From Candidatus Kapaibacterium sp. (GTDB lineage: Bacteria > Bacteroidota > Ignavibacteria > Kapaibacteriales > UBA2268): a stretch of 64,000 bases of DNA. The stretch covers positions 3,241,620-3,305,619 of the forward strand of contig JAVSMQ010000001.1 of the NCBI GenBank assembly GCA_032027125.1, given 5' to 3'. This document shows positions 5,769-59,073 of the stretch, piece by piece. The position numbers and the translations under genes are program-made. Position 1 is the stretch's first letter, and each line of letters begins with the position of its first letter. The notes under the pieces are model-generated. The model searched no databases. It was given only the letters and a program-made list of their open reading frames with translations, and had not been told where the DNA came from.

Positions 5769-5789
5769 AATTAGCTTCGCAGGTCTTCG
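5769..5789 (-). repeat. dispersed ~21-35-bp intergenic repeat, copy A (CGAAGACCTGCGAAGCTAATT, minus orientation)
   Basis: Reverse complement of 5769-5789 is CGAAGACCTGCGAAGCTAATT, identical to 23760-23780 and 1 mismatch from 24943-24963. Shares …GCTAATTACG with copy C. Confidence 0.7.
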
Positions 5790-6148
5790 ACTTCTTAATT
5801 GACTATACTTCTACTCTATTATAAAGGTTAATCAGTTAAATAATTTTCAGAATCAGGGCTATTTCGACATATTCCCAATTATGTATAATTATTTGAATAT
5901 CCACGTTGTGTTGGTAATATCATTTTATAAATAAAAATTATTTAAAAAGAATAAAAAATTCTATTTGCAAATTAAAAAATGTTAGGATATTCAAATTAAA
6001 TACCTTACATTTACTTATAGATATATAAAATATTGATTTAACATTTCATTGAATTTTAAAATGAATTGGTTTATTAAAAAATATATCTTATTAATGAATA
6101 TGATTTTTCATTAACTGGTTGAATTATTATTAACTAAGCAATAAATAT

Positions 6149-7729
6149 ATGGAAGATGAAGGTACAATTTATTTGAAAGAAAAGGCGATTTCAGAAATTG
6201 AAAATATTCTCAACCAGATAATTGAGAGTGAAATTCCTGAAGAAAAATTATTGGAACAAATGGGAATATTTAATAAAGGTCTTCCATTTGTAAAACTAAA
6301 CAGACCCTGCATTATTGCCGATGGAATAACCAAAATTCAGGAATCTGATTTTGATGCATTATTAAAATTGCACTCAAGAGTTTCAAATGATGGTAGAATT
6401 ATGAAGTTTGTTCCCGCCTCAGGAGCAGCAACACGTATGTTTAAAGATTTGATTACAACCTTCAATAATCGTCAAATAAAGTCTTTAGAAGAGAATTTAA
6501 GTAAAGAAATAGATTACACAATCGAATTTATAAAAAATATCAAAAAATTTGCTTTCTATGAAGTTTTAAATAATAAGTTATCGGAATTAGGCTATGATGC
6601 TGATAACATTATTTCTTCAGGCAATTTCAGAATAATTTTGGATTTATTATTATTTGATAAAGGGTTGAATTATTCATTACTACCAAAGGGTTTAATACCA
6701 TTTCACAGGTATAATGATGAGATTAGAACTCCTTTTTATGAGCATTTAATTGAAGCCTTGGACTATTCAGCGGATAACAATAAGAGAGCAAGAGTTCATT
6801 TCGCTGTGGCAAAAGAGTTTTTCGATGAAATTGAAAATCATTTATATGAAATTACTCAGTATTTGAAAAATAAAGGCAGTTTTGATATTAGTTTAACGAT
6901 ACAAAAGAAATCTACTAATACGATTGCCGTTGATATGAATAACGAGATTATCTTAGATGATGAAAATAATCTGATATTCCGGCCCGGCGGTCATGGTGCT
7001 TTAATTGAAAATCTCAATGAGTTAAATGGTGATTTGGTATATATTAAAAATATTGATAATATTCAGACCGATGATTTGAAAGAGACTACAATTTTTTATA
7101 AAAAGCTTCTCGGTGGTTTTCTTGTTCAAACTCAGGATAAAATATTCGAATTATTAGTTGGTTTACATTCAGGTAATTACTCCTCATCTTTATTTTCGGA
7201 AATTGCTGAGTTTTCAAAGAATATACTTTCCATTAATACCGGCGATGATTATGAGTATAAATCTATAAATGAAAAAGCTGAATTTTGGAAAAAGTGTCTT
7301 GATAAACCACTTAGAGTCTGCGGAATGGTAAGGAATTCCGGGGAGCCGGGCGGCGGTCCATTTTGGGTTGAGGATATCAGCGGAGAATTATCATTGCAGA
7401 TTGTTGAATCAGCTCAAATTGATTTAAATAATGTTGAACAGAAATTGATTTTCAATTCATCTACACATTTTAATCCGGTAGATTTGGTGTGTGGATTGAG
7501 AGATTACAAAGGCAATCCTTATGACCTGAACAAATTTATTGATATTAAAATGAGCTTTATAACAATTAAATCGGTTGGAAGTAAAGAAATCAAAGCTTAT
7601 GAGCTGCCTGGATTATGGAACGGTAGTATGGCTTATTGGAATACAGTATTTATTGAGGTACCTGATACTACTTTTACTCCTGTGAAAACAGTAAATGATT
7701 TGTTGAAGAAAGAGCATCTTCAAACTTGA
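6149..7729 (+). CDS. DUF4301-like / UDPGP-type nucleotidyltransferase-fold protein
   Basis: 526 aa. Motifs FVPASGAATRMFKDL and FRPGGHGALIENLNEL resemble the glycine-rich NTP-binding and G-H-G motifs of the UDP-glucose pyrophosphorylase superfamily. This is a tentative assignment. Confidence 0.4.
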   Translation: MEDEGTIYLKEKAISEIENILNQIIESEIPEEKLLEQMGIFNKGLPFVKLNRPCIIADGITKIQESDFDALLKLHSRVSNDGRIMKFVPASGAATRMFKDLITTFNNRQIKSLEENLSKEIDYTIEFIKNIKKFAFYEVLNNKLSELGYDADNIISSGNFRIILDLLLFDKGLNYSLLPKGLIPFHRYNDEIRTPFYEHLIEALDYSADNNKRARVHFAVAKEFFDEIENHLYEITQYLKNKGSFDISLTIQKKSTNTIAVDMNNEIILDDENNLIFRPGGHGALIENLNELNGDLVYIKNIDNIQTDDLKETTIFYKKLLGGFLVQTQDKIFELLVGLHSGNYSSSLFSEIAEFSKNILSINTGDDYEYKSINEKAEFWKKCLDKPLRVCGMVRNSGEPGGGPFWVEDISGELSLQIVESAQIDLNNVEQKLIFNSSTHFNPVDLVCGLRDYKGNPYDLNKFIDIKMSFITIKSVGSKEIKAYELPGLWNGSMAYWNTVFIEVPDTTFTPVKTVNDLLKKEHLQT

Positions 7730-7784
7730 AGAAAAAGCAGGTAAATTTTCTAAAGTTTTTTTTATTATATGATGAGGATATGAT

Positions 7785-8132
7785 ATGAATTTTGAAACTG
7801 AGATTAAGGGTAAAGTAACAATAGTTACTCTTAATGAAAAAAGATTTGATGCAAAAATTGCAGTTACATTTAAAGATGCCATGAAATCTTTAATTGATAA
7901 GGGTAGTCTATTCTTTATTGTCAACCTGAAAGCCGTAGAATTTATTGATAGCAGCGGGCTTGGCTCGATTGTTACAGTTCTAAAATTAGTCGGCAGAAAA
8001 GGTGATGTTTTTGTTAGCGGCTTAAATGACAGTGTTATGCAGATGTTTTCGCTAACAAGAATGGATAGGGTTTTTAAAATATTTCCTAATGTTGAAGATG
8101 CATTTGTTGAACTTAATAATAATTTAGAATGA
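7785..8132 (+). CDS. STAS-domain anti-sigma-factor antagonist (SpoIIAA/RsbV-like)
   Basis: 115 aa. STAS hallmarks are ...LKAVEFIDSSGLGSIV... with the phosphorylatable Ser in the DSSGLG context. Translationally coupled to the next gene (ATGA overlap at 8129). Confidence 0.8.
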   Translation: MNFETEIKGKVTIVTLNEKRFDAKIAVTFKDAMKSLIDKGSLFFIVNLKAVEFIDSSGLGSIVTVLKLVGRKGDVFVSGLNDSVMQMFSLTRMDRVFKIFPNVEDAFVELNNNLE

Positions 8133-8563
8133 ACGTGAATAATCCGGAAATAAAATTAATCATTACAAGTAACTTTGATAATGTTTCACTTATTGGTGTT
8201 ACTGTTCATCAACTCTGCAAATATTTTTATGACGATGAAGCATTTGCTTCAGAAATAGAGATTGGCATTGTTGAAGCTTGCAACAATGTTATTGAACATT
8301 CTTATCTTGCAAAGGACAATCAAGACATAGAAATGAGTTTAAAATTCTTTAAAGACAAATTAAATATTCGTTTAAGTGATTATGGTATTTTCAAAGACAA
8401 ACGAAAGAAACCCAAACTTGATTATGACCCCGATGATATTGATAATCTTCCTGAAGGTGGGATGGGGCTGTTTTTGATTTATAACATTATGGATGAGTTG
8501 TCATATTCAAGAAGTGGCGGAAAAAATACATTGTCAATGACAAAAAATATATCGGATAAGTAA
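8129..8563 (+). CDS. anti-sigma regulatory factor, Ser-protein kinase (RsbW/SpoIIAB-like HATPase_c)
   Basis: 144 aa. HATPase_c N-box VEACNNVIEHSY and G-box LPEGGMGLFLI. Sits immediately downstream of the STAS gene. Confidence 0.75.
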   Translation: MNVNNPEIKLIITSNFDNVSLIGVTVHQLCKYFYDDEAFASEIEIGIVEACNNVIEHSYLAKDNQDIEMSLKFFKDKLNIRLSDYGIFKDKRKKPKLDYDPDDIDNLPEGGMGLFLIYNIMDELSYSRSGGKNTLSMTKNISDK

Positions 8564-8980
8564 AGTGAGATTTAAATTGCTGCATATAATACTAAATTCA
8601 ATTGAAATATTACTTTCCAGTCTTTGGCAAGTTTTGTTCTTGACGAAAAATCAGGATAAATCCATATTACAAAGTTGGAGAATGACATCTTCCGGTATGT
8701 TATCTGCTGAATTTTTCTTACCAGGTGAATCGTACTTAGTGAGGAGTCATAACACATTTTTGAAAATTGAATTTTTGTTATATTCGGCGATGAATCAATT
8801 GAAACAGATTTTTCATTTCGATTTGGCATCGATTATGTTAAAGCAATAATTGGAAAAAATAAAAAGGATTTGAAGAATAGTCAATTTATAATTGTTGCCG
8901 GTGTTAATTTCTGTAATGAAAATGTGTTGGTTAAATTTAGTTTCTAAAAAATATTCTAATAGAATTACAAAATTACTTTT

Positions 8981-10786
8981 TTGATGAAAATTATGAGCTT
9001 TTACTTTGAGAAATTCGAGCATAGAAAACCTGAAAAGGCATTACCTTATTCTGCCGTAATTGAAACAATTTGGCAGTTATTTGCTACGATTAGTATAATC
9101 ATTGGTTTTTGGTATATTTCCTGGAGGTGGGGTTCATCACTTAATTACGATGCTTTATGGTTTTCCGTTCCACTGGTTCTTGCAGAAACTCTTGCTTATA
9201 TTGGATTAATTCTATTCTATATTAATATTTGGAAAGTGAAAGATTATCACAAATCAGAACCGCCTGAGTTATATTCCGAGTGTGTAGATGATAAAGCAGG
9301 AAATAACCGTCCATTAGCTATAGATATATATTTTCCTACTTATAATGAGGATGTTGAGCTTGTCCGTTTATCAATCAAAGATGCTAAAAAAATCACATAT
9401 CCACATAAGATTGATTTAAGAATTTATGTTTTGGATGACGGAAAAAGACCTGAAATGAAGCAGGTTGCCGATGAAGAAGGTGTCGGCTATATTACAAGAA
9501 ATAATAATCAGGGTTTTAAAGCCGGTAATTTAAGAAATGCAATGGAAAATACATCTGGTGATTTTATTGTCATTTGTGATGCTGATACAAGACCTTTTCC
9601 TACAATTTTGAATCATTGTATGGGGTATTTTAAAGATTCTGATGTAGCATGGGTACAGACTCCTCAATGGTTTTTCGATTTACCTGAAGGTACACCACTA
9701 CCTGTAATTATGAAAAAGTATTTAAGTTTACCTGGATTCTACTTCGGTAAACTATTTGAAAAAATTGCAGGTCCGGTTAATGTCGGACAGGACCCCTTTT
9801 GTAATGACCCTAAAATGTTTTATGATATCATTTTGAGAAGACGTAACTGGGCAAATGCTTCTTTCTGCTGCGGTGCCGGTTCAATTCATCGCCGCGAAGC
9901 TGTAATGAATGCTGCCGTAAAAACATTCGCAGACTCTATTGACGGATACATTCGTAAATATACCGAAGAAATTGAAGATGCAACACTGAAAAAGGAATTA
10001 CATGAGGCAATGGCACGTGAACTTATGATTGAAACCGAAATTACTCCTTATAAATATCATGTTTCCGAAGATATATATACTTCAATTATTATTCATTCCG
10101 AAAAATCAAGAAATTGGAAATCGGTTTTTCATCCTGATATCGAATCTAAAATGCTTTCTCCTCAGGATTTGTTGAGCTGGAGTGTCCAAAGATTTAAATA
10201 TGCAGGTGGTTCGCTTGATATCTTAATGCACGATAATCCATTATTTAGAAAGGGATTGAGTTTTGCACAAAAATTGATGTACGGCGCAACTTTTTGGTCA
10301 TATTTGTCAGGTATATGGAATATAATTTTTCTATTATCACCTATTGTTTATTTGTTTTTCGGAATTTCGCCTGTTTCTGCAGATTCTGTCGAATTTTTTA
10401 AGCATTTTCTGCCATTTATTGTTTTTATGCAGTTTTCATTTATGCTTGGAACATGGGGTATTCCTGCCTGGAAGGGCTCTTCATTTTATCTTTCATTTTT
10501 CCCGATAAATTTACGTGCAATATGGACTGTAATTAGAGGAGAAAAGATTAAATTTCCAATTACCCCAAAATCAAGACAGGAAGGGAACTATCTCATGCTT
10601 GTAATACCTCAGATTGTTGTAATGTCGCTTACTTTTCTTGGAATTCTTTTTGCAAGTGGAAAAATTATACTTGGATATTCGGATAATATTGGAGGTCTTA
10701 TTGCAAACATTTTTTGGGGCTTTGTAAACATTTTTTCACTTTGGGGTATTGTTGCCGCTTCAATTTGGAAGCCTGAAGACGAGTAA
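8981..10786 (+). CDS. processive family-2 glycosyltransferase, cellulose-synthase-like (BcsA/OpgH-like), no PilZ domain
   Basis: N- and C-terminal TM bundles flank a GT-A domain. It has DDG...DAD (VLDDGKRPE; VICDADTRP) and a Q-R-x-K/R-Y/W-A-x-G motif (SVQRFKYAGGSLDIL) matching the QxxRW processive motif. No RxxxR...DxSxxG PilZ signature at the C-terminus. Confidence 0.75.
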   Translation: MMKIMSFYFEKFEHRKPEKALPYSAVIETIWQLFATISIIIGFWYISWRWGSSLNYDALWFSVPLVLAETLAYIGLILFYINIWKVKDYHKSEPPELYSECVDDKAGNNRPLAIDIYFPTYNEDVELVRLSIKDAKKITYPHKIDLRIYVLDDGKRPEMKQVADEEGVGYITRNNNQGFKAGNLRNAMENTSGDFIVICDADTRPFPTILNHCMGYFKDSDVAWVQTPQWFFDLPEGTPLPVIMKKYLSLPGFYFGKLFEKIAGPVNVGQDPFCNDPKMFYDIILRRRNWANASFCCGAGSIHRREAVMNAAVKTFADSIDGYIRKYTEEIEDATLKKELHEAMARELMIETEITPYKYHVSEDIYTSIIIHSEKSRNWKSVFHPDIESKMLSPQDLLSWSVQRFKYAGGSLDILMHDNPLFRKGLSFAQKLMYGATFWSYLSGIWNIIFLLSPIVYLFFGISPVSADSVEFFKHFLPFIVFMQFSFMLGTWGIPAWKGSSFYLSFFPINLRAIWTVIRGEKIKFPITPKSRQEGNYLMLVIPQIVVMSLTFLGILFASGKIILGYSDNIGGLIANIFWGFVNIFSLWGIVAASIWKPEDE

Positions 10787-10881
10787 ATCTCAGGTCCATA
10801 TATTTGTAAATAGCTGATTTGAAAGTTTAATTTTGTTGTTTAAAGTAGATTTTTGCGTTCTAATTTAGTAAGGAAAAAAGA

Positions 10882-12222
10882 ATGTCTTTTAAAGAAAATT
10901 TAATTAAAGCCAGAAGCCATATCATTGTAATGTTAGGCATTATAATTGCCGGTGGTATTATTGTTGTTTTAGAAATATCTAATTTTAAAAGTGGATTTGA
11001 AAAGGAAAAATCTGAAGTGGAGAATTTAGTAGTTAAAAAAACAGCAGATATTAAACCGATATCCAAAAGCGAGTTAACAGATGAGGAAATTCAGTATGCA
11101 AAAATAGCATGGAATTTCTTTGAAAATAATTATATACCCGAAACCGGCATGGTTAATTCTACTGATAACTATAATGCATCAACAATGTGGGATACCGGCT
11201 CATATTTGATGGGCTTGATTTCTGCTTATCAACTTGGAATTATTGACCAAAAAGAATTTGATATACGGCTAACAAAAATATTGACTACTTTATCAGAGTT
11301 ACCTCTTTTTGACGGTGAAATTCCCAATAAATCATACAATACTGTATCACTCGAAATGATAGATTATAATAATAAGCTGTCGCCTCGCGGGATCGGTTGG
11401 TCAGCTATAGATATAGCGAGACTATTTATCCCTTTTCATGTAATAGCATGGAAATATCCCGAGCATAACGGGGAAATTGCACAGGTTTTAAGCAAATGGA
11501 ATTTTAGGAATATAGTAAAAGACGGTTATTTGTATTGTGCTGCTGTTGATTCAAATAACAGAAGTATATATTTTCAGGAAGGACGATTGGGATATGAGGA
11601 ATATTCGGCAAAATCATTTATCCTATTAGGGATTGATGTTTTTAAAGCCTTAAATTATGTAGATTTCCTCAAGTATATAGATATTTATGGTATAAAAGTT
11701 CCTGTTGACAGTAGAGAACATACTGAATATGGTGCTCATAACTATGTAGTAAGCGAACCGTACATTTTAAATGGTTTAGAATTTGGATTTGATGAAACCG
11801 GCGAAGAGTTTGCATATAGAGTTTATAAAGCTCAGGAATTAAGATGGAAAAATACAGGCATATTAACGGCAGTCAGCGAAGACAATATTGATTTACCTCC
11901 TTATTTTGTATATAACACTGTATATTCAAGCGGAAAAGCCTGGAATTGTATAACAGATGAAGGTGTTGATGCTTCTCAATTTAAATCCCTGTCGTCTAAA
12001 GCTGCTTTTGGATGGTATGTGATATACAAAACAGATTATACAGAAAAATTGATAGATAAAATAAAGAACAATTACGATATACAGAGGGGCTGGTACTCAG
12101 GAATATACGACAAAACAAACTTACAAAACAAATCAATAACCTGTAATACAAATGCCCTGATTCTTGAATCATTGGCATACAAAAAGTTCGGTCGTTTTAT
12201 CAATATTTTAAATATCCGGTAA
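10882..12222 (+). CDS. membrane-anchored periplasmic protein, paralog 1 of 3 (putative beta-glucan-binding/glycoside-hydrolase-like, DUF3131/glycoamylase-like)
   Basis: N-terminal signal-anchor TM. Shares with 17042..18439 and 18429..19838 the blocks IAWxxFxNNY, TGxVNSxDNY, LWDxGSY, LPNKxYNT, YQEGRLGYEEY, PVDSRxxxEYGAHN, RxKNTGILTA and PYFVYxxIYxxG. Family assignment is tentative. Confidence 0.5.
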   Translation: MSFKENLIKARSHIIVMLGIIIAGGIIVVLEISNFKSGFEKEKSEVENLVVKKTADIKPISKSELTDEEIQYAKIAWNFFENNYIPETGMVNSTDNYNASTMWDTGSYLMGLISAYQLGIIDQKEFDIRLTKILTTLSELPLFDGEIPNKSYNTVSLEMIDYNNKLSPRGIGWSAIDIARLFIPFHVIAWKYPEHNGEIAQVLSKWNFRNIVKDGYLYCAAVDSNNRSIYFQEGRLGYEEYSAKSFILLGIDVFKALNYVDFLKYIDIYGIKVPVDSREHTEYGAHNYVVSEPYILNGLEFGFDETGEEFAYRVYKAQELRWKNTGILTAVSEDNIDLPPYFVYNTVYSSGKAWNCITDEGVDASQFKSLSSKAAFGWYVIYKTDYTEKLIDKIKNNYDIQRGWYSGIYDKTNLQNKSITCNTNALILESLAYKKFGRFINILNIR

Positions 12223-12512
12223 ATAACATGATGATAAAAAATAACTATCTTCCGATATCTAACATCTTCATTTCATTGGAGGCTGGAGCGACTTTCCTAA
12301 TATATCGGGACTATTTATTTTTTGTGAACATATTTGAGCAGGAGTCTGAAAATATTTTATGATTGACATTAAAAAAAATATTATCAAACATTCTTTCTTT
12401 AAATTATTATCAGTTATAACAGTCATACGGAAATATTGTTATCATTTGATGACGTATTTTGGATTATACAGTAATTCAATTATTTTTTTCTCAATAAGTT
12501 TAAGGAATAATA

Positions 12513-13790
12513 ATGGGACATAAATTATTGGATAAATTATCTTATACTTCTACTGATTCTAATAGAGATCTGAGAATTGACTTTATCAGAGGTGTTGTTA
12601 TGTTGATTCTAATAATTAATCACCTTGAATTTAAGTCATGGTACAATTTTCTATTCAGCGAAAGAATAGGTATAGTATCAGGAGGTGAAGGTTTTGTCAT
12701 ACTTGCCGGTGTTGTGATAGGGATGATAAACCGAAAAAGGTTGGAAATAAATGGTTTTGTTATTACAACTAACAAACTGATTGACAGGGCATCAACGCTT
12801 TATATGACAAATATTTCAATAATTCTGATTATAGCTGTTCTATCTTTTGTTCCTATGATTAATACAAGTTCTGTCCAGACTTTTGTTGACAAACCGGGTA
12901 AAATTATATATTCTCTGTATCCAAAACCATTGATTGATTCCATAAAAATTGAAGATTATTCAGTCAGGTTTGAGAAAGACAGCGTCGCATTTCAAATCCC
13001 GTATCTTGCAACAGATAATATTCAAACAATAGCAGCTAAAACTGTATTGTTAAGAATTGGTCCTCATCAATACCAAATCATGGGACTTTATGTCTTACTT
13101 TTGTTTTTGACACCTTTAGCATTGCTTTTAATGAAAAATAAAAGAACTGCATTACTTTTAGCTTTATCCTGGATATTATATTTGAAAAATTGGGCTTTTC
13201 CTATCACAGGTTTCCCGCCGGGAATTACGGGATGTCAGTTCGAAAGCGGATTCCCACTTCTTACCTGGCAGCTGATTTTCTTTAATGGCATGGCTGTAGG
13301 TTATCATAAGGATAAACTGGTTGAAATAATGAAGGGAAGATTCAGATTTGCCATATTAACTTTATCATGGGTTTTATTCCTGTTTTTCTTATTTCTCGCT
13401 CAAAATAATCCTGACCCTGAAAAAGTTAACTTATATAGGTTTGCAATAATTGATACAGATTTATGGGGTAAATTATATAGTGAATATTTTCAAAAAAACA
13501 CATTAGGGATACTTCGTTTAGTGAATTATTTTGCTGTCCTTATGGTGTCTTATCATTTACTTACGAAGTTTTGGAGAGTTTTCGATAAATCTCTGGGTTG
13601 GTTCTTTGTTCCTATAGGTCAGTCATCCCTTTATGTTTTTATCATTCATATCTTTATTGTATTATTAATAAATCAGTTTCCTCAATTTTGGGATAATATG
13701 TTGTTTGGAACTTTAGGGCATACGTTAGCCCTGACAATTTCATGGCTGATGGTAAAATATAAGATATTATTTAATATTATTCCCAGATGA
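12513..13790 (+). CDS. multipass integral membrane protein (possible acyltransferase-3/OpgC-like)
   Basis: 425 aa with about 10 predicted hydrophobic helices and no soluble domain. Function inferred only from locus context (an OPG-like arrangement). Confidence 0.35.
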   Translation: MGHKLLDKLSYTSTDSNRDLRIDFIRGVVMLILIINHLEFKSWYNFLFSERIGIVSGGEGFVILAGVVIGMINRKRLEINGFVITTNKLIDRASTLYMTNISIILIIAVLSFVPMINTSSVQTFVDKPGKIIYSLYPKPLIDSIKIEDYSVRFEKDSVAFQIPYLATDNIQTIAAKTVLLRIGPHQYQIMGLYVLLLFLTPLALLLMKNKRTALLLALSWILYLKNWAFPITGFPPGITGCQFESGFPLLTWQLIFFNGMAVGYHKDKLVEIMKGRFRFAILTLSWVLFLFFLFLAQNNPDPEKVNLYRFAIIDTDLWGKLYSEYFQKNTLGILRLVNYFAVLMVSYHLLTKFWRVFDKSLGWFFVPIGQSSLYVFIIHIFIVLLINQFPQFWDNMLFGTLGHTLALTISWLMVKYKILFNIIPR

Positions 13791-13943
13791 ATCCAATTAT
13801 GATTAAAGATAATATAAATATTAAAAATCCTTTATTTAAACTGAATCTTATGACTTTAGTAAAAATGAATATTTACGGGTATATTCTTTTTTATGTTTTA
13901 TTCATTACTCTTTCTCAGGACTTAAAATTTATCAGGTGCAGTT

Positions 13944-16900: not shown

Positions 16901-16964
16901 ATCCGGTGATGATTTTGAAGATGATATAACCATATTGGCTATTGAGAGGACTTATGATGTTTAA
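13944..16964 (+). CDS. multi-sensor PP2C-type Ser phosphatase (GAF-PAS-PAS-GAF-LOV-SpoIIE/RsbU-like)
   Basis: N-terminal GAF (…CAHAIKKPDELFIVPDAEADERF…GAPL). PAS domains carrying DITERK-type PAC ends (three times). A LOV core YVNKGFEKITGYKSYDIIGKNCNILQG…FWNELTISPIFDDNKDITHFVGLQNDITERK, close to canonical GRNCRFLQG with the adduct Cys. C-terminal PP2C/SpoIIE region (DVSGHGIPAAMMSV… DDITILAI). Confidence 0.85.
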   Translation: MENNDTQLENLRLAELRSYALLDTPAQQTFDDITLMAAQICNLPIALISLVDEKRQWFKSKVGLDADETPREHAFCAHAIKKPDELFIVPDAEADERFKDNPLVIGTPNVRFYAGAPLVTKNGFALGTLCVIDTIPRELNVQQLKALDALRRNVITAFELRKAMRDIKDTETALKESLARQNAIFNNAADAIISIDANGIIDSFNPKAVSLFKISAEDAVGLNISEFMPPEHSSKHNQYLKNYFESKDSKVIGKCNELTCKKYDGSLFIAELSVGEFDVNGKKMFTGIIRDITERKEIENNLKYREERYRKIFELSPEVIVLFDDKGFILDLNDRCFDFTGYTKQELLNLHLSHVPFFDKKSKETVMYNFSNRLSNISIPPYETEYIHKNGTICTGLISAALIKNENEQNLQIFAMISDITVRKNNEKQIKQSNDMMKAINSLMGLYISESLQESELFDILLVKLLEISCSEYGFISKVLYDVDAQPYFKTISITDLSWNEEVRKLYDLYSNKDLEFRNLNTLFGSVLKTKKAVISNNPENDSRSGGLPENHPPLNAFIGIPIMKSDDIIGLYGLANRIGGYDRETTDYLEPFTSTLGYILLGLDEKDKRKKAEEALRINQRAIDSSSNGIVIVDAKDTHLPVIYVNKGFEKITGYKSYDIIGKNCNILQGTDNDQPGITEIRNAIKNNKHVTTVLRNYKKDGTLFWNELTISPIFDDNKDITHFVGLQNDITERKTSQEKLEAAYRTIKNDFEAAAQIQRDLLPNVKYVIPGLSFKWLFIPSVEVSGDIFNYFQLDENITAFYLLDVSGHGIPAAMMSVTLSRMISPYQKPESLLRILNPVTNKYIITPPAEVISHLNSIYQSELDSISYFTMIYGVIDFGKNKITFCQAGHPSPMLLTSGGEVKSVGTSGFPVGMLPDMNYENQEFDFIKGDKLFIYSDGVTECSNNQDILFSEELFIKTISENRNKQMEEIIENLKIKLKNWKSGDDFEDDITILAIERTYDV

Positions 16965-17041
16965 CTTATATAACATTATAAAATTTAATTACATATTAAT
17001 CGCTTACGAGCAAATTATCTTAAGTTAAGGAGTAAAAATTT

Positions 17042-18439
17042 ATGAAAATAATAAATGTTAAACAAAAATTGCTTGCTATATTTGTTCTGTGTATTTTTAC
17101 TTTCTGCCCGGAAAAAATTATTTCACAAAATAATCATCACGGTAAGAATGGTGCTTTAACAGAAACTGAAATGAAAATTGCAAAAATCGCCTGGAAATAT
17201 TTTCAAAATAACTATATTGAGGAAACAGGATTAGTCAATTCTGTGGACAATTATCCGACAATTACGTTATGGGACAACGGTTCCTATCTCGGAGCATTAG
17301 TTGCTGCATTCGAACTCGGAATAATTGATAATAATGAATTTGAAAAACGTATGTCTTTGTTTTTAAAAACTACCGGTAATCTGACCTTATTTAATTCTGA
17401 ACTTCCAAATAAGGTATATAATACAAAAACATTGAATAAGGTTGATTATGTAAATAAAAATAAAGATTTAGGATATTCTGCTCTGGACATAGCAAGATAT
17501 ATTTTATGGCTCAAAATCGTAAAAGAAAGATACCCGCAGTACAGTAATACAATTGATAATATAATGTTATCCTATGACTTTTCGAAAATTATTGATAGTG
17601 ATGGAAATTTATATGGCGGGAATCTCAACGAAAAAAATGAAATAAAATATTATCAGGAAGGGCGATTAGGATATGAAGAATACTGCGGAAAAATCTTTGC
17701 TCTTTGGGGATTTAATACTGCCAAGGCATCAAAACTTGAACCCTATACTACAAAAATAATATACGATATTGAAATTCCGGTAGATTCGAGAGATTCAAGG
17801 GAATATGGCGCCCATAATGCCGTACTTGCTGAATCATTTATACTTGATGGAATTGAACTTAACTGGGACTTGCCTGATGACAAATCAACAGATGATATGA
17901 AAAGTTCTGATTCAATTCTAACCAAAGAATTAGCTGATAGAATTTTTAAAGTTCAGTATGAAAGATTTAAGAATACTGGAATTCTGACGGCAAGGAGCGA
18001 ACATCAACTGGACGAATCGCCGTATTTTGTTTATGATTGTATTTATGCAAATGGATATCGCTGGAATACTATTGATACGAAAGGGAATTTTGTTCCGGAA
18101 TATGCAGCAGTTTCAACAAAAGCGGCTTTTGGATTATGGGTATTATGGAATTCATCATATTCAGACACTCTTTTTAATAATTCAGTAAATAATTATGATG
18201 CTGAAAAGGGCTTCTATGAAGGTATTTATGAAAATAACAAAAAACCTATTAAAGCATTTTCTGCCAACAATAACGGTATAATCCTGGAATGTCTTCTATA
18301 TAAGGTACAAGGTAAACTTCTAAAATATAATTCAGACATTAATTCACTTTGGGATCAAAGTATAAATGAAGGTACTGCCGATAAAAAAAGAATTCTTGAC
18401 AGACAAATAAAATATTTAAAAGGTAAAAATGAGAAATAG
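17042..18439 (+). CDS. secreted paralog 2 of 3 (DUF3131/glycoamylase-like periplasmic protein)
   Basis: Signal peptide. Shares the conserved blocks listed for 10882..12222. Confidence 0.5.
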   Translation: MKIINVKQKLLAIFVLCIFTFCPEKIISQNNHHGKNGALTETEMKIAKIAWKYFQNNYIEETGLVNSVDNYPTITLWDNGSYLGALVAAFELGIIDNNEFEKRMSLFLKTTGNLTLFNSELPNKVYNTKTLNKVDYVNKNKDLGYSALDIARYILWLKIVKERYPQYSNTIDNIMLSYDFSKIIDSDGNLYGGNLNEKNEIKYYQEGRLGYEEYCGKIFALWGFNTAKASKLEPYTTKIIYDIEIPVDSRDSREYGAHNAVLAESFILDGIELNWDLPDDKSTDDMKSSDSILTKELADRIFKVQYERFKNTGILTARSEHQLDESPYFVYDCIYANGYRWNTIDTKGNFVPEYAAVSTKAAFGLWVLWNSSYSDTLFNNSVNNYDAEKGFYEGIYENNKKPIKAFSANNNGIILECLLYKVQGKLLKYNSDINSLWDQSINEGTADKKRILDRQIKYLKGKNEK

Positions 18440-19838
18440 AATATTATCAAGATTAATCATCATAATTTTTTTATTAAATATTACAGGATTCTCCGGATGT
18501 GCTTTTGTTATTGATTCATTTGAAAGCGGAATAAATTCCATAAAGCGTGTGTTTCATACGAATAGAACCGGAACACTTGATGATAAGGAATATAAATGGG
18601 CTAAAATAGCCTGGCAGTATTTTGATAATAACTACAACAAAAATACAGGTTTGGTAAATGGCAAGGATGGATATCAAATAGCTACATTATGGAATATGTC
18701 TGATAATATAATGGCACTTATGGCAGCCTATGATTTGAAAATAATCAGTGAACACGAATTTGAAGGAAAACTCAGTAACCAGCTTAGATTCTTAAGTAAT
18801 ATGCAGCTTTGCAGTAATCTTCTGCCTAACAGAACATATAACACAGTCACCGGATTAATGGTTGATTATTCATGGAATCCTGGTGAATCCGGATGGGATG
18901 CTGTTGATATAGGCAGAATGTTGATTGTTTTGAAAATACTTGCCCAAAAGCATTCGCAATATAATGAATTTATTGATAAAATTGTTTTAAGGTGGGACTT
19001 ATGTTCGGCAGTTGATTCAGATGGTAATCTATTAAGCAGCAGTAAATGGAATAATTCGATTTCTGCATATCAGGATGGATATATCGGAACTAAAGAATAT
19101 ATTTCCAGAGGTTTTCAGGCTTGGGGTTATAATGTAAAAAAAGCAGGTAAATTTGAAAATTTCAACAAGGAAATCATTTTCAAAAAAGTTCTTTTTGTTG
19201 ATGGAAGAGATGAACGGTTAACAAAAAGTATAAATTCATTAGTTAGTTCCCATTATTTACTTGATAGGATTGAATTTGATAATCAGAACTTTGGTTCGAT
19301 TAAGGAAATTGATTATTTAGAAATTGATGACAGATACAAAATTCAAACTGAAAATATTTACAAGATACAGAAAATGAGATTTGAAATTGATAAAGTTATG
19401 ACTGCAAGAAACACTTATCAAAGTAATTCCGAACCTTTTATAATTTATAACACAATTTTTGGAAATGGATATACTTGGAATGTTTTAGACCCGAATGGTA
19501 AATATTTGAAAAATAAGGCACTCATTTCAACACAATCAGTGTTTAGTATGTGGGTTTTATGGGATGACTATTATACTGATGAACTAATGAACTTTATGAA
19601 GAATGCATTTGACCCATTATCCGGCTGGTATGAAGGCAGGTATGAATCATCAAGCAGTTTTGAAACAACAATTGTTAGTTCCACAAATGCTGTGATTCTT
19701 GAATCGTTATGGTTTAAAACTAATGGAAGATTATATGAGCAGACTGATATAAGCAATTCATATTATCTCAAATCCATTACAAGTGAATTATCAAATAAAA
19801 CCGGTTGCATTGGTAAGATTAGAAAAATATCAAAATAA
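18429..19838 (+). CDS. lipoprotein paralog 3 of 3 (DUF3131/glycoamylase-like periplasmic protein)
   Basis: Signal peptide with a Cys (…ITGFSGC). Shares the paralog blocks (IAWQYFDNNY, LWNMSDN, LPNRTYNT, YQDGYIGTKEY). Overlaps the previous gene by 11 bp. Confidence 0.5.
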   Translation: MRNRILSRLIIIIFLLNITGFSGCAFVIDSFESGINSIKRVFHTNRTGTLDDKEYKWAKIAWQYFDNNYNKNTGLVNGKDGYQIATLWNMSDNIMALMAAYDLKIISEHEFEGKLSNQLRFLSNMQLCSNLLPNRTYNTVTGLMVDYSWNPGESGWDAVDIGRMLIVLKILAQKHSQYNEFIDKIVLRWDLCSAVDSDGNLLSSSKWNNSISAYQDGYIGTKEYISRGFQAWGYNVKKAGKFENFNKEIIFKKVLFVDGRDERLTKSINSLVSSHYLLDRIEFDNQNFGSIKEIDYLEIDDRYKIQTENIYKIQKMRFEIDKVMTARNTYQSNSEPFIIYNTIFGNGYTWNVLDPNGKYLKNKALISTQSVFSMWVLWDDYYTDELMNFMKNAFDPLSGWYEGRYESSSSFETTIVSSTNAVILESLWFKTNGRLYEQTDISNSYYLKSITSELSNKTGCIGKIRKISK

Positions 19839-19852
19839 AACAGGAAATAATT

Positions 19853-21712
19853 ATGCTGGAATCAAAGTTTAACCGAAAATATTATTTTTATTTGCTTTTT
19901 GTAAATATATGTCTGAATTTCTCAGTTGCATTTGCAGATGAAACAAAATTTGTAAAAGAAGTAATTAATATTGGGAAATATAAAAGAGAATTTTATGTAT
20001 TCATACCTTCAACTGCTAAAGATATCAATAATCCTGCTATAATCGCTTTTCACGGATTTGAAAGCAACGCAAATGCAATGAGGTATCTGATTAGTCCGGA
20101 TTTACTTGCTCAGGAATACGGTTTTGTAATGGTATATCCCCAGGGCAATAATAATAACTGGAATGTAGGGATAGGCAATGATACGCTTTTTTCTGATGCA
20201 GATGATTTTGAATTCATTTCTCAGATGATTGATACATTAATCTTTAAATACAAAATCAATAAGGATGAAATCTTTTCTCTGGGTTTTTCTGAAGGTGCAC
20301 AAATGGCTGCTTCATATACGTGCAAATTTCCCGGAAAAATCAGTGCTGTGGGAATGGTCTCATATATATATAAACCGGAATCCTGTAATTTTACAAAGAA
20401 AATTCCTATAGCTGTTATTAATTCAAAGGAAGATAAAATTGTCCCTTTCGAAGGGGGAGGTAAATTTAATCATATTTCGCACGATTCTGCAGTAAGTTAT
20501 TTTAAGTCGCTAAATCAGACTAATCCAATGTCATCGGTTGTAGTTAATAAAAATACAGCTAAGTGTATTTCATATAAAAATATTAGTGAGAATGTCGAAG
20601 TTATTGACTGTATATGCAGTAAAGGAGGACATACATGGCCCGGAGGTATTGAAATCAATGAAGCAACATTTGGAAAAGTAAATAATGATTTAAATGCTAC
20701 TGAATTTTTTATGAAATTCTTTTCAAAATACTGCAAGGAACCTTATCAAACAGAAACCGGATATACTGCTGCAAATGAATTAAAAAAAGCAAATGATAAC
20801 CAAATTAAATCAATCACACGATATGGTTTTCTTGTTTCGGATGATTTAAGCTCAGATGATAATAGGGAAGAGTCAGAATGGCAAAAAATTTTAAAGGGTA
20901 TTAAAAGCTCATTCTCCTTTAAAAGTACGAGGGAAAAGCCAAAATCCGGCTGGGATAAGCTGCTGGACGGATTCAGTGGCAATTTCTCTTTTGTTTTTCC
21001 TATTACAAAAACAGAAACATTTAATGATAAAGGAAGTAATTCACAAGGCGAACCAAATAATAATATAGCATTAAATGCTTCAATCAGATATAATCCTTTA
21101 TCGTATTGGTTTGTTGGGGCTACTTTTTATAAATATTTAAACAGTGATTTGCAGGCTCCCTGGCATCCTGATTTTACTTATACATTTGGTTATGACGACT
21201 GGCATCCCTATACTTTAAGTTTGGTTTATTCAAATTATAATGGTAATCGCTTTAATCCTGATAATAATGAATCGGTTACAAATATTTGGGAAGGTTCTTT
21301 TGCATTGGGATGGAAATTCCCGCCAATTAAGGTAATTGAAAATTTAATAAAATTTCATCCAACATCCGGTTTAGGGCATAAATTGAGTTATAATGTTGTT
21401 CCTGTTTATTATGACAATTCAACAAATTCTAAACAAGATTGGAAGCAATCAATCTCATTATATACAAAATACACAATATACAAGAGTTTCTATATAGATA
21501 TAAATATGTACTATTATTTGAACCAATCACAGCAACAGCCTTGGGATCCTGATTTTAATTATACATTTGGTTATTTCGATTGGAGGGCAGGTACATTTGC
21601 CTTCAGATATAACAACTACTCAGGTAACAGATTTTTCTGGAGAAACAGAAATGATAATACAGGGCGTTTTACTGACGGATTTTTCTCTATAGCATGGAGT
21701 TGGATGTATTAG
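19853..21712 (+). CDS. secreted alpha/beta-hydrolase (PHB-depolymerase/LpqC-type esterase) fused to a C-terminal internally duplicated domain
   Basis: Signal peptide. Esterase half has HGFESNANAM…YPQG…NWNVG and the nucleophile elbow LGFSEGAQM. C-terminal half has two copies of a ~35-aa unit (APWHPDFTYTFGYDDWHPYTLSLVYSNYNGNRF / QPWDPDFNYTFGYFDWRAGTFAFRYNNYSGNRF). Confidence 0.55.
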   Translation: MLESKFNRKYYFYLLFVNICLNFSVAFADETKFVKEVINIGKYKREFYVFIPSTAKDINNPAIIAFHGFESNANAMRYLISPDLLAQEYGFVMVYPQGNNNNWNVGIGNDTLFSDADDFEFISQMIDTLIFKYKINKDEIFSLGFSEGAQMAASYTCKFPGKISAVGMVSYIYKPESCNFTKKIPIAVINSKEDKIVPFEGGGKFNHISHDSAVSYFKSLNQTNPMSSVVVNKNTAKCISYKNISENVEVIDCICSKGGHTWPGGIEINEATFGKVNNDLNATEFFMKFFSKYCKEPYQTETGYTAANELKKANDNQIKSITRYGFLVSDDLSSDDNREESEWQKILKGIKSSFSFKSTREKPKSGWDKLLDGFSGNFSFVFPITKTETFNDKGSNSQGEPNNNIALNASIRYNPLSYWFVGATFYKYLNSDLQAPWHPDFTYTFGYDDWHPYTLSLVYSNYNGNRFNPDNNESVTNIWEGSFALGWKFPPIKVIENLIKFHPTSGLGHKLSYNVVPVYYDNSTNSKQDWKQSISLYTKYTIYKSFYIDINMYYYLNQSQQQPWDPDFNYTFGYFDWRAGTFAFRYNNYSGNRFFWRNRNDNTGRFTDGFFSIAWSWMY

Positions 21713-21780
21713 ATGCCAACTCAAATGAGCAAATATGACACTCATGTACTGCTTCAGAGAAAAATGGACCAATCAAGTAA

Positions 21781-22317
<537 letters not shown>

Positions 22318-22386
22318 TGTATTAATATAATACCTATATGATTATAATTTCCTTATTTTTGTTGTTAAAATTATAAGTATATCAGA

Positions 22387-23112
22387 TTAATGATATTTTA
22401 CTATCCTACTTTTTCCATTCTGATAATTTTTTATTTGAGGACTTGGTTTAAAAAATTGTAAGTTGTAGAAATCCATATTGATTTTACCATTTTCGAAAAG
22501 ATTTTTGACATGTTCATCATTTTTAAACATTCTGAAGCAATAAACATCGCCATAGTCCTTTTTGTGTATCATAAAAACACTACAAACTTTATAATTTTGA
22601 CCGAATTCAGGGTCAATATTACAAAATGCAGTAATGCCATAATCTGCATTAAACTGTTTCTTTACTCCTATCAAAGGAAATTCAGTGATTGATCGTTTTG
22701 CACCTGCCATGCTTGAGTCATCTTTTTTGCAAATATTAAATAAAATTGCCATAAAATATGATTTATGATAATTATTCGGGTCAACGAAGTATTCTTCTTT
22801 AATTGAATCATTTTTCTTCTTTCCGCTTGCTTTGCGTTCCAAAAAAGCATTATAATCTAATAGTGCGCTGTCTAAGGGTTGTATCAAATATCTTACTTCA
22901 ATTTCATTTTCAAGTCTATAAGCAAAGTTATAATATACCTGCTCATTTTTAACGACAGGAACATAATTAAATTTTTCAGGAAGAAATAATACCAAATCAG
23001 CTCTTTCAAGTAAATTTTGAATTTCTTTAAAATTATCTTCAGAACATTTTGAAGATATAAGAGTTAAAAATAAAATCAAAAATATTGTCAATAAAGCAAA
23101 TTTTGTTTTCAT
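22387..23112 (-). CDS. hypothetical secreted protein
   Basis: Signal peptide (MKTKFALLTIFLILFLTLISS). No recognisable domain. Confidence 0.35.
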   Translation of the reverse strand: MKTKFALLTIFLILFLTLISSKCSEDNFKEIQNLLERADLVLFLPEKFNYVPVVKNEQVYYNFAYRLENEIEVRYLIQPLDSALLDYNAFLERKASGKKKNDSIKEEYFVDPNNYHKSYFMAILFNICKKDDSSMAGAKRSITEFPLIGVKKQFNADYGITAFCNIDPEFGQNYKVCSVFMIHKKDYGDVYCFRMFKNDEHVKNLFENGKINMDFYNLQFFKPSPQIKNYQNGKSRIVKYH

Positions 23113-23113
23113 T

Positions 23114-23671
23114 TTATTTAATGTTCCGATTAATTAATGAACTATTATCTAAAAATTCAGTATTCTCATTTTTTCTTAAAGCCCATATTTTCAAATAATT
23201 AATATCAGTGTGGCTATATATTTTTTTTTCGCCTGATTCCGGAGAATCCACTATCAATATGTAACTTCCGTCAGCCCAATATGAATAGCCTTTCAGCTCT
23301 GCAGCATGAAGTTTGTTACTAAAGATATTTTTTTTCTCATATATTACAATATAACTTTCATTAATCCAAGTTATTGATAATAATGCAGTAGTATCAGGAT
23401 TATCAATTAATTTTGCTGTTAAACCAAGATTTTTCCAAATTTGTGGTAAGTCTTTTACAAATACTTTGCCTGCCGAATCTAAATTGATAAATTTCTGAAT
23501 ATTTTCATTAATTTCAAAATGATTATGGGGTTCATAATATAACATAATTCGTTTAGTACAAATTTGGATTGAACCATCATCAATAAATAGTTTCTCTTTC
23601 TCCTTATTGTAATCTATTGAAGTACATGAAGAAATGATTAAAACCATCATCAATAAATAAATTCCTTTCAT
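23114..23671 (-). CDS. hypothetical lipoprotein
   Basis: Signal peptide with a lipobox-like LIISSC. No recognisable domain. Confidence 0.35.
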   Translation of the reverse strand: MKGIYLLMMVLIISSCTSIDYNKEKEKLFIDDGSIQICTKRIMLYYEPHNHFEINENIQKFINLDSAGKVFVKDLPQIWKNLGLTAKLIDNPDTTALLSITWINESYIVIYEKKNIFSNKLHAAELKGYSYWADGSYILIVDSPESGEKKIYSHTDINYLKIWALRKNENTEFLDNSSLINRNIK

Positions 23672-23759
23672 AATTTTCCTATCAAATATTTGTTATAAAT
23701 TTTAGTTTTTTTTTAAAATTTCTTGTCAAATTCAAGAACTCCACAATCAATCACGAACT

Positions 23760-23780
23760 CGAAGACCTGCGAAGCTAATT
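23760..23780 (+). repeat. dispersed intergenic repeat, copy B
   Basis: AATCAATCACGAACTCGAAGACCTGCGAAGCTAATTTC. Extended similarity (AATCAA…GAAC.CGAAGACC.GCGAAGCTAATT) to copy C. Confidence 0.7.
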
Positions 23781-23938
23781 TCAATTTCTTGGAATATAAT
23801 TGTATCTTTCCGATATTTTAAGCAATTCTTAAAAATCTTTTACATCGTATTTTATCATCACTATGTTCAATTTAAATATATTTTAATTTTAAAAAATAAT
23901 AAATTCAACTCTTAAGTTTTCAAATATTTTTTCTATTA

Positions 23939-24817
23939 TTAATAATTTGTATATTCAATTTTGTATCTTGATTTACCAAAATCAGGATTTATATATCCAA
24001 TAATATTATCTTTTGAATCAAATTCGAATCTTTCTATCTTCTTTTCTTCTATGCGATATCCTTTGTACATTACCCACTCATAAATCCTTGTATTGTTTGT
24101 GTCGTTATTTATTTTATCATAAGAAATTTGTTTAATATTGTTTCCATCGCTATCATAAAAATATTCGGTTACAGATCCACTGGTTGAATCTTTTCCATTT
24201 AAAGTATAAATCAATTCCTTTTTGTTATCATAACGCCTGAACGTTTTTCTAACTGATCCTGAAATAATGGTTGAATCAACTTGTAATGTACATAATCCAT
24301 TTATATCATAAAAAAAATCACTAATTCCATAGAGGATATTATCTCTGTACATTTGCGTCTTGACTAATTTTTCTCCTTCTCTTGTATATACATAATATGA
24401 GGACTTATTCGACGAGGAATATGAGTCAAAATAGCCAATTTTGATATAACCCTCACTATCATATTCATAACGAGTAATAGCATAATAGCTTGAATCATTC
24501 GAATATTCAATATTTTTTATGAGGCAACCGTATTTAAATAGTGGAAGTGGGACGTTAGAACGATCTTGTTGGAGAGTACTTTGGTATTTAAAGTTTCCAG
24601 TCCAACTCCTTAACATTCTTCTGAGATATCCATCAACATCTCCATCAAAAAAATATTCTGAATTTTTAACAAAATCGTTAGTATCACCGGAATGAGAAAC
24701 ATAAATTGTTATTTTCATTTTTTGGAAAGAATTATTGACATTAATTCCATTATCACCACAAGATGAAAAAACAAGAAAGCAAAATAAACTAATAAAAAAA
24801 TAAAATGAATTCTTCAT
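23939..24817 (-). CDS. lipoprotein with YD-repeat-like motifs
   Basis: Signal peptide plus Cys (VFSSC). Repeated motifs YEYDSEGY, FFYDINGL, YFYDSDGNNIKQISYDKINN. Flanked on both sides by copies of a ~30-bp dispersed repeat. Confidence 0.45.
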   Translation of the reverse strand: MKNSFYFFISLFCFLVFSSCGDNGINVNNSFQKMKITIYVSHSGDTNDFVKNSEYFFDGDVDGYLRRMLRSWTGNFKYQSTLQQDRSNVPLPLFKYGCLIKNIEYSNDSSYYAITRYEYDSEGYIKIGYFDSYSSSNKSSYYVYTREGEKLVKTQMYRDNILYGISDFFYDINGLCTLQVDSTIISGSVRKTFRRYDNKKELIYTLNGKDSTSGSVTEYFYDSDGNNIKQISYDKINNDTNNTRIYEWVMYKGYRIEEKKIERFEFDSKDNIIGYINPDFGKSRYKIEYTNY

Positions 24818-24942
24818 AATTAACCTTTTAATGTATTATTTAACAGATTATTCAAAAATATAAATATTTTAAAGAAGAAAACAAAAAAAAATTACAAATT
24901 GACTTCTAATCATCATTTCATACGAATTTCAAATCAAGAACC

Positions 24943-24963
24943 CGAAGACCAGCGAAGCTAATT
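24943..24963 (+). repeat. dispersed intergenic repeat, copy C
   Basis: AATCAAGAACCCGAAGACCAGCGAAGCTAATTACG. Together with copy B it brackets the 292-aa YD-like lipoprotein gene in direct orientation. Confidence 0.7.
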
Positions 24964-25031
24964 ACGAGTTAATTGATGTAGATTGTATTTATATGATTTA
25001 AATTAACTTATACCAAATATTTTCTTACTTT

Positions 25032-36567: not shown

Positions 36568-36655
36568 GTAGTTTTTCAATGTCCGAATTTTTTGAACGGT
36601 TTATTAATTTATTCAATAGATTCGAGGATGCAGGCAATGTTTTAAAATGGTATTT

Positions 36656-38388: not shown

Positions 38389-38488
38389 ATACCAAAAAAA
38401 ATGAAATCAAGAACCTAAATGCGCTCTTGATTATAAGAAAAATAACAATGAACAACAAATTATTAATATAGAGTGAATTTTCGTCAAA

Positions 38489-39262: not shown

Positions 39263-39374
39263 TAATCAACTTTTTTTTATTTTTCAATATTTACCATTTT
39301 CAGAATATAAAAATACGATTTAATTTTAAAAAATAATATTTTTACATGATATTAATTTACAAATTCAATTAATT

Positions 39375-42567: not shown

Positions 42568-42583
42568 TGATTTGTTTGAATGA

Positions 42584-44681: not shown

Positions 44682-44758
44682 ATATTTTTACTTCAATTTT
44701 AGTAGCTAATAGTGATTTAATCTTGATTTAAAAATAACAAAATTCTATAATTGAAAAA

Positions 44759-45913: not shown

Positions 45914-45943
45914 TAATATTTCAAAATTAATCTGATAAAAAAG

Positions 45944-53651: not shown

Positions 53652-53655
53652 TAGA

Positions 53656-59068: not shown

Positions 59069-59073
59069 AACAC

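Follow-up and report, generated by a model that had tools for sequence, protein, structure and literature searches.

A short oriented sequence repeated upstream of small lipoprotein genes beside guaA in Candidatus Kapaibacterium: a putative cis-regulatory box

Introduction

Response regulators of the OmpR/PhoB/CpxR type use tandem direct-repeat boxes, of which the GTAAA-N5-GTAAA box of CpxR is an example. Here we describe a short intergenic sequence, named K, that occurs three times in a 64,000-nt stretch of the genome of Candidatus Kapaibacterium sp. (assembly GCA_032027125.1, contig JAVSMQ010000001.1, positions 3,241,620 to 3,305,619 of the forward strand; hereafter the window). We tentatively propose, as something close to an even call, that K is a selected, oriented and putatively protein-binding cis-regulatory box with CTTCG-N5-CTTCG as its tandem half-sites. 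Like the response-regulator boxes, it has an identical pentamer pair, a 10-bp centre-to-centre distance and a defined orientation, is non-palindromic and lies upstream of genes for envelope proteins; the two direct half-sites at 10-11 bp spacing that characterize such targets are present in K. It differs from them in the length of its invariant part, 21-26 nt with the tail CTAATT and most of the spacer, which far exceeds that of a typical regulator box, and in the small number of its copies.

Several other described systems resemble the locus in part. In Mycoplasma agalactiae, the vpma lipoprotein genes carry Xer1 recombination sites (RS) in their conserved 5' untranslated regions (PMC2268961). 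K is likewise a short conserved sequence within ~100 nt upstream of clustered surface-lipoprotein starts. The vpma genes, however, are paralogous with conserved signal peptides, lie in both orientations round one promoter and have the recombinase in their locus, whereas the genes linked to K are unrelated and co-oriented and no recombinase was seen in the screened regions nearby, an arrangement that is not of the vpma/vsp type. Genomic islands are documented to integrate at the 3' end of guaA, as GIsul2 does at GAGTGGGA (PMC9376610). Two of the three K copies, B and C, lie in an island directly downstream of guaA, and relatives carry 55-bp duplications or remnants of the guaA 3' end that take in this integration sequence; unlike the GIsul2 case, K is unrelated to the guaA attachment (att) region and no integrase was seen in the window island. 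Direct repeats of intergenic heptamers, such as TAACTGA, are found in Beggiatoaceae, Cyanobacteria and Bacteroidetes (PMC4679880). K is embedded in register with NNNNATT runs upstream of genes, but the three heptamers of K itself are each unique and not copies in tandem, and the surrounding arrays comprise only 2-5 imperfect units.

Integron cassettes and enterobacterial interspersed repeats are also relevant. As in integrons, single genes lie here between recurring 50-65-nt sites of one orientation, and gene content varies between relatives. The integron attC sites are imperfect inverted repeats that fold as single-stranded DNA (ssDNA) and are accompanied by a linked IntI, whereas K and its neighbouring module D have neither in the regions that were screened. 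Bacterial interspersed mosaic elements (BIMEs) and repetitive extragenic palindromes (REPs) of enterobacteria, which are associated with REP-associated tyrosine transposases (RAYTs), are short intergenic modules in mosaics, as K is, and one foreign K copy lies beside a RAYT-like open reading frame (ORF). REPs, in contrast, are palindromic and present in hundreds of copies, while K is non-palindromic and rare and forms no hairpin.

Results

The preliminary description of the window had claimed three copies of a 21-bp core in intergenic regions, one of them inverted. A pattern scan for this core, CGAAGACCWGCGAAGCTAATT (that is, CGAAGACC(T/A)GCGAAGCTAATT), with up to three mismatches allowed, returned exactly three matches, at 5769-5789 on the minus strand (copy A) and at 23760-23780 and 24943-24963 on the plus strand (copies B and C), so that A is indeed inverted relative to B and C. 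The 21-mers of A and B are identical and that of C differs by one base. The chance expectation was zero (0 of 100 dinucleotide-preserving shuffles contained a match), and the sub-words CGAAGACC, GCGAAGCTAA and GAAGCTAATT were confined to the three copies in the window and ~19 kb of extra flank on the same contig. All three copies are intergenic and lie within 19.2 kb, with spacings of 1.2 kb and 18 kb. The repeat is real and non-random. Similarity between A and either B or C spans 34-35 nt at 89-91%, and between B and C it spans 66 nt at 73%. An extension of the core to ~35 bp had been attributed to B and C only; it holds for these two, but ~35 nt are conserved in all three.

Alignment of all copies and their relatives defined this longer conserved unit of ~35 nt, which we call K and read on the strand opposite to the 21-mer first reported, as AATTAGCTTCGCWGGTCTTCG followed by RSTTCKTRATTGA. 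K_A occupies 5769-5803 on the plus strand (AATTAGCTTCGCAGGTCTTCG followed by ACTTCTTAATTGAC). On the minus strand, K_B is part of a 51-nt block at 23730-23780 that includes the 21-mer and ends 88 nt upstream of the ATG of a 185-aa gene, and K_C, at 24929-24963, includes the 21-mer and ends 125 nt upstream of the ATG of a 292-aa gene. The core of K holds the pentamers CTTCG-N5-CTTCG in tandem, phased at 10 bp and often joined by a third CTTC after another 6 nt. The word TTGAY follows the core. CGAAG-N5-CGAAG is present in all three copies and has no mismatch-free match elsewhere in the window. The sole base that varies among the window copies sits in the N5 spacer (W, which is T on the minus strand in K_C), and three of the five changes in a decayed copy from a relative, L119, likewise fall within the 5-nt spacer. 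The G+C content of K is 48%, within spacers of 19-20% G+C.

Among the window copies, only B and C have a distal module, D, of ~38 nt directly 5' of K, with the consensus ATC..A.ATACAAT......AA.TCGTAATT. D_B (23777-23814, ATCGGAAAGATACAATTATATTCCAAGAAATTGAAATT) and D_C (24960-24997, ATCATATAAATACAATCTACATCAATTAACTCGTAATT) are both on the minus strand and immediately precede K. The sequences that flank A have no relation to those at B and C. Short runs of NNNNATT heptamers share their register with K, and relatives differ in length by 7, 28 or 35 nt. The AATT and NATT words that flank K fit this local heptamer pattern, and no clear target-site duplication was seen. The heptamers near K include CGTAATT, TGAAATT, CAGAATT and CAGCATT (window 24900-25000 and 23730-23830; contigs L004, 1-70, and L007, 1930-1990; L119, 215-260).

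An absence of tRNA-like or hairpin character had been reported for the repeat, and our data agree. Folding of the 51-nt and ~100-nt DNA stretches on both strands gave z values of -0.6 to +1.4 and revealed no hairpin or inverted symmetry, no tRNA was found at the copies, and Rfam 15 gave no hits at the gathering score in the window and only chance-level ones (E at least 0.5) around the copies and on the four metagenome contigs described below. K lacks terminal inverted repeats and, with no clear target-site duplication, shows neither hallmark of a miniature inverted-repeat transposable element. No paired inverted core sites of the attC kind were found in the 35-65-nt unit. Collection scans found a single copy per locus, and the one pair seen in a relative is ~870 nt apart with no array, which does not resemble a CRISPR. 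Three further candidates were set aside. An ssDNA mini-hairpin (GCGAAGC, GTCGAAGAC) was not supported by folding, and its would-be pairing flank bases are unconserved. Readings of K as a sigma-54, extracytoplasmic function (ECF)-type or Bacteroidetes -33/-7 promoter failed by inspection, without statistics, on missing critical bases. A coding remnant or micro-ORF (ISFAGLR...) was rejected, also by inspection, because no start codon recurs consistently and several copies have a stop just upstream.

When K is read from AATTAGC to TTCG, the next start codon in the same direction lies at 88 nt (B), 125 nt (C and L119), 86 and 82 nt (two copies in the relative L136), 89 nt (metagenome contig L005) and 359 nt (A). 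It is directed toward the start codon at five of six independent sites, the exception being contig L006. The direction of K and its distance to start codons are consistent: apart from A, the distance is 82-125 nt at four independent sites, and four of the genes so faced encode small lipoproteins without relation to one another. The downstream genes mostly encode small lipoproteins (292, 185 and 221 aa) that are not paralogues of one another; paralogy among the lipoproteins flanked by K was considered and rejected, as none was detected. The 221-aa lipoprotein, from L136, is a 33%-identical paralogue of a 241-aa protein of the window. All the lipoprotein genes next to the window K copies are on one strand.

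The 292-aa lipoprotein ORF (23939-24817, minus strand) is bracketed by K_C and K_B, which are direct repeats 125 nt before its start and 159 nt past its stop, as originally observed. The two repeats had been described as 'exactly flanking' this gene; the bracketing is there, but it is trivially expected if every gene of a tandem series has its own upstream box. The label 'YD-like' given to the protein could not be confirmed, since it matched no Pfam family. Downstream of K_B are the 185-aa and 241-aa lipoprotein ORFs (22387-23671, minus strand). Copy A had been placed upstream of another small secreted-protein gene, and it does lie 112 nt upstream of a 145-aa lipoprotein ORF (5220-5657, minus strand), of opposite sense to K_A; it occupies a divergent spacer with this gene on one side and a DUF4301-STAS-HATPase_c_2 operon on the other. 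Homologues of these lipoproteins are scarce: 8, 3 and 4 were found among 5.8 billion proteins, the 292-aa protein having 8, and the contigs that carry them supplied the main comparisons below.

A constant sense relative to the downstream genes would also be expected if K acted as RNA, as a conserved 5' untranslated stretch with its promoter in D, to which a protein or small RNA would bind to control translation or stability. D does contain a conserved -10-like ATACAAT ~20 nt upstream of K at B, C and the relatives L136, L134 and L119, and a post-transcriptional role has been proposed for heptamer direct repeats that precede start codons in other bacteria (PMC4679880). K, however, has no predicted structure and belongs to no Rfam family, it occurs without D at A, at the second L136 copy and on L004-L007, and the nearest gene at A is in the opposite sense. 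We regard an RNA role as very improbable.

To place the repeat in a phylogenetic setting, we compared the window with related loci. It is identical to JGI metagenome contigs, and its proteins bear the locus tags RO257_13270 and RO257_13340. Among 185,579 species genomes, the closest GuaA proteins belong to metagenome-assembled genomes of Kapabacteria/Ignavibacteria, at 79-82% identity. The lineage represented by L136, L137 and L138 is ~82% identical to the window at the nucleotide level and 66% identical at four-fold sites (34% synonymous divergence). At its B site it nevertheless keeps 21/21 bases of the core and 47/51 of the block, with binomial P values, against the 66% four-fold identity, of 1.6e-4 and 1.3e-5, respectively; from the block to the ribosome-binding region the alignment with L136 is poor by eye. 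K at the B site is unchanged across 34% synonymous divergence, so its conservation points to purifying selection, or else to recent replacement. The box at this site is older than the split of lineages that are now 34% synonymously diverged, two of which keep the core unchanged. L136 has a second K copy (19/21) 82 nt upstream of the 221-aa lipoprotein gene, with a remnant of the guaA 3' end 10 nt beyond it; its two copies are ~870 nt apart and bracket a lipoprotein gene different from that of the window.

Elsewhere among relatives K fares less well. In the sibling genome (L123-L133), whose nucleotide identity to the window is 96.9% in the adjacent core and 88% across the lipoprotein block, the B-site K has decayed to 17/21 and no K is recognisable at the A site, where homology to the window ends 10 nt short of K_A. 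In L119, with a 292-aa homologue that is 78% identical, the C-site K has decayed to 16/21, and a D_B-like module (84% identical) that lacks K lies 100 nt upstream. In L134/L135 a D_C that is 89% identical runs straight into the proximal flank of the 185-aa gene homologue; neither K box is present, nor is the 292-aa gene, and a Bro-N gene lies upstream. In the degenerate copies, 9 of 11 substitutions are G/C to A/T. K thus decays by GC-to-AT changes or is lost in other lineages. The proximity of the three window copies, all within 19.2 kb, and the 66 nt at 73% shared by B and C could reflect a local segmental duplication whose functionless, immobile remnants they are. The perfect orthologous copy across 34% synonymous divergence, the dissimilarity of the A flanks to the B and C flanks and the identical 21-mer in four unrelated metagenome contigs make this extremely improbable.

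These four contigs, L004-L007, came from scans for the exact 21-mer, which gave no match in the 185,579 species genomes or in IMG/VR. Each has one copy; they share no genes or flanks with the window and are 35-43% G+C. Searches with K and D profiles (nhmmer) and with mismatches in ~1.5 Mb of collected loci gave no new copies, and the guaA loci of relatives, ~1 Mb in all, have none. A BLAST search of plasmids and phages with the B unit returned nothing relevant, looser 16-base sub-patterns on viral contigs were dismissed as chance matches found only inside G+C-rich phage genes, and the sequence itself was not found in a full-text search of 8 million papers.

The copies on L004-L007 are intergenic and embedded in mosaics of other short repeats, and their setting brings in a further explanation, namely that K is a BIME-like selfish or neutral intergenic module, three special heptamers within NNNNATT arrays, spread by an unspecified mechanism or by gene conversion and without function for its neighbours. 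On L004, L006 and L007 K sits amid short-repeat mosaics and heptamer runs, L007 having two similar arrays, one with a ~72-nt insert that contains K and one without; on L005 it lies 93 nt from an ORF of the Y1_Tnp family (RAYT/IS200-like) among REP-like palindromes. The heptamer register with its indels of 7, 28 or 35 nt fits this explanation, as does the finding that copies within the window genome are more alike than the orthologous copies in the sibling and L119. Its difficulty is rarity: there are three copies in 83 kb (window plus flank), none in the ~1 Mb of relatives' guaA loci and no exact one in 185,579 genomes. Moreover, K offers no palindrome to a RAYT/HUH enzyme, and no Y1_Tnp was listed among the precomputed Pfam annotations for about half of the window (1-34,800 and 50,400-64,000) and 10 kb on each side. 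The retention of 21/21 and 47/51 bases at the B site argues for selection on that copy and against recent spread, and the consistent direction and start-codon distance also count against a neutral module, which we consider distinctly unlikely. Two features were noted beside the foreign copies: L004 has two opposed blocks of ~25-30-nt tandem repeats (CAGTTGACTTGAGTCGTCAAA / GACTCAAGTGAACACTATTTT) at 150-700, after the motif copy, and C-run/G-run hairpins next to the L006 copy resemble two palindromes of the window (see below).

Copies B and C lie within a 4.9-kb stretch bounded by guaA (26906-28447, minus strand), whose 3' end is an integration hotspot in this lineage, and, at the far island edge, by a truncated aldo/keto reductase, a C-terminal fragment of 129 aa (21928-22317, plus strand) covering profile positions 187-289 of 291. 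Between guaA and D_C/K_C sits an AAA_21 ATPase and DUF4276 gene pair (25032-26782, minus strand), a candidate HEC-01 defence match in PADLOC (E = 1e-83 and 2e-148). The pair is absent at this position in L058, where guaA and the lipoprotein gene are adjacent: the 292-aa homologue directly follows guaA, and 55-bp direct repeats of the guaA 3' end (11471-11525 and 12596-12650 in L058, 98% identical) lie on either side of it. Degenerate guaA-end remnants also precede cassette genes in L118 (~1700-1760, before the homologue) and L136 (~150-178). To judge from their sequence, these duplications and remnants are the signature of repeated site-specific integration at guaA, as in GIsul2-type islands.

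The block with the 185-aa and 241-aa genes and the reductase fragment (window positions 21928-23783) is 88% identical to L123 266-2082, with 78-88% identity at four-fold sites, while the core is 96.9% identical with 95% at four-fold sites; synonymous divergence from the sibling is thus 12-22% in the block and 5% in the adjacent core gene. Because this divergence is far above that of the adjoining core, the lipoprotein block must have been exchanged or imported. In the sibling, a DDE_Tnp_1 insertion sequence (IS) lies at one block edge, by the reductase fragment, and an IS21-like end near the other. An IS21-like element of the sibling (IstA-like ORF, GAAAACTGACCAA words at its ends) also truncates the homologue of the 145-aa lipoprotein (L133, 590-660). 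The similar IS21-like end, ~180 nt upstream of the sibling B site (L123, 1-60), is probably why many assemblies break there.

Such a setting suggests that K and D together might form a recombination site or cassette junction at which single genes with their flanks are inserted, excised or exchanged downstream of guaA, either by an unlinked site-specific recombinase or by homologous recombination between conserved patches of 50-65 nt, comparable to the upstream-homology sequences of variable lipoprotein genes. Direct K copies bracket one lipoprotein gene in the window and another in L136; in L134, which lacks both K and the 292-aa gene, D_C directly adjoins the proximal flank of the 185-aa gene. 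Homology between window and sibling stops 10 nt from K_A, and their BLAST alignment stops at the distal edge of K_B (by eye, identity at B already falls from ~55 nt upstream of the ATG), beyond which lies the exchanged, divergent lipoprotein block. The location of the island at the guaA 3'-end hotspot (L058, L118, L136), the second L136 copy 10 nt from a guaA remnant, and the same 21-mer in unrelated contigs all fit such a scheme.

Other observations speak against it. No integrase (a linked IntI included), recombinase or transposase was present in the precomputed-Pfam gene calls for window positions 1-34,800 and 50,400-64,000 and 10 kb to either side, calls that do not extend to 34,800-50,400. 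K has no inverted-repeat arms or hairpin, unlike the core sites of tyrosine recombinases, attC and REP, and by inspection it is dissimilar to the guaA 3' att sequence. Nor does the bracketed segment look like an integrase island, for it contains the lipoprotein gene only and no tRNA is involved. The preliminary description had predicted that one repeat copy would remain as a footprint where the bracketed gene is absent, and this prediction failed: L134 retains no K at all. Slippage can account for the absences of 28 and 35 nt, both of them multiples of 7 with CGTAATT-type heptamers alongside; a box upstream of every gene would produce the bracketing in any case; and the comparison rests on three lineages only. 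The idea of a cassette boundary therefore stands in part, in that gene content differs at the junctions (L134 lacks the gene and L136 has another gene bracketed) but leaves no footprint. Likewise, the predicted presence/absence variation of the bracketed gene is seen between lineages, but not within the strain: all contigs with the identical protein share one context, and same-strain polymorphism was rejected. A shufflon-type inversion between A and B/C was also discarded, the orientation of the sites relative to the genes being at odds with promoter swapping.

On balance we hold a recombination site or cassette junction, the foremost alternative to a regulatory box, to be on the unlikely side. 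Its more specific form, in which K+D (~65 nt, oriented and unstructured) would be the site of an undescribed non-integron cassette system of Kapabacteria with the recombinase encoded elsewhere, appears quite improbable; if true, such a system would swap single lipoprotein or defence genes, and the same core elsewhere would mark horizontal spread.

Some further features of the window lie away from K. Two long G+C-rich intergenic palindromes occur at 49925-50020 and 62886-62973 in this genome of 33% G+C, one with arms of 35 nt at 94% complementarity and the other with arms of 32 nt at 100% (CCCCCTAACCCCCTC... / ...GGGGTTAGGGGG); they may be REP-like elements or bidirectional terminators. At 32847-33863, six 189-nt tandem repeats (60-75% identity) lie inside the gene for a 1314-aa Por_Secre_tail (type IX secretion) protein and are protein-level repeats. 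A 51-nt sequence is present three times (54213-54263, 55175-55225 and 56151-56201), ~960-975 nt apart and with 90% and 63% identity, among small toxin-antitoxin-like genes (Polbeta nucleotidyltransferase, PIN, YoeB).

Discussion

The repeat had earlier been offered three possible roles, as a recombination site, a cassette boundary or a regulatory site common to small secreted proteins. Of these, the regulatory role agrees best with the data, because K keeps a consistent direction, lies 82-125 nt from the starts of unrelated lipoprotein genes and shows signs of purifying selection; the cassette option fits in part, without the footprint it predicted. We envisage that a trans-acting protein binds K in the region 5' of transcription units, most of them for small lipoproteins that bear no relation to one another, and thereby controls transcription of the downstream gene. 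The most plausible factor would be a winged-helix, response-regulator-like protein, because the tandem CTTCG-N5-CTTCG pentamers are followed by TTGAY, a possible -35 element. That boxes bracket the 292-aa gene would then be a by-product, each neighbouring gene having its own box. Genes of the guaA-adjacent variable island may be exchanged along with their control region, and the boxes would coincide with rearrangement junctions because the two move together. Protein binding, control of transcription, the nature of the factor and the layout of the promoter are all features that we infer from the DNA sequence.

A number of observations weigh against a regulatory box. Mismatch and profile searches of the 83 kb of window and flank found no K copies of intermediate similarity and thus no degenerate, regulon-like spread. 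In this A+T-rich DNA, scans for sigma-70-type promoters did no better than on shuffled sequences. Copy A points away from the nearest lipoprotein gene, and the start codon at 359 nt that it does face belongs to the same-sense DUF4301-STAS-HATPase_c_2 operon. The orthologous copies in the sibling and L119 change at an approximately neutral rate (17/21 and 16/21), which indicates that function is not universally kept, and gene content switches exactly at the K junctions. Finally, an identity of 21-26 nt with apparently unrelated organisms, amid selfish-looking repeats, is unusual for an operator; as the collection scans were exact-match only, this perfection across organisms is partly an ascertainment effect.

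With these points in the balance, a regulatory K would be an uncharacterised addition to the broad class of cis-regulatory DNA boxes, situated where the modules of a mosaic island meet. Downstream of guaA, this island combines a candidate HEC-01 pair, lipoprotein genes, IS and guaA att remnants, with junctions that coincide with the box. Were the recombination explanation to prove true, K would represent a new kind of cassette system; as it is, K is a modest, well-defined regulatory candidate. Kapabacteria are uncultured and their gene regulation is unstudied, and a box shared by several lipoprotein genes would provide a concrete handle on an envelope regulon, both as a bait sequence for the regulator and as a motif for cataloguing its targets.

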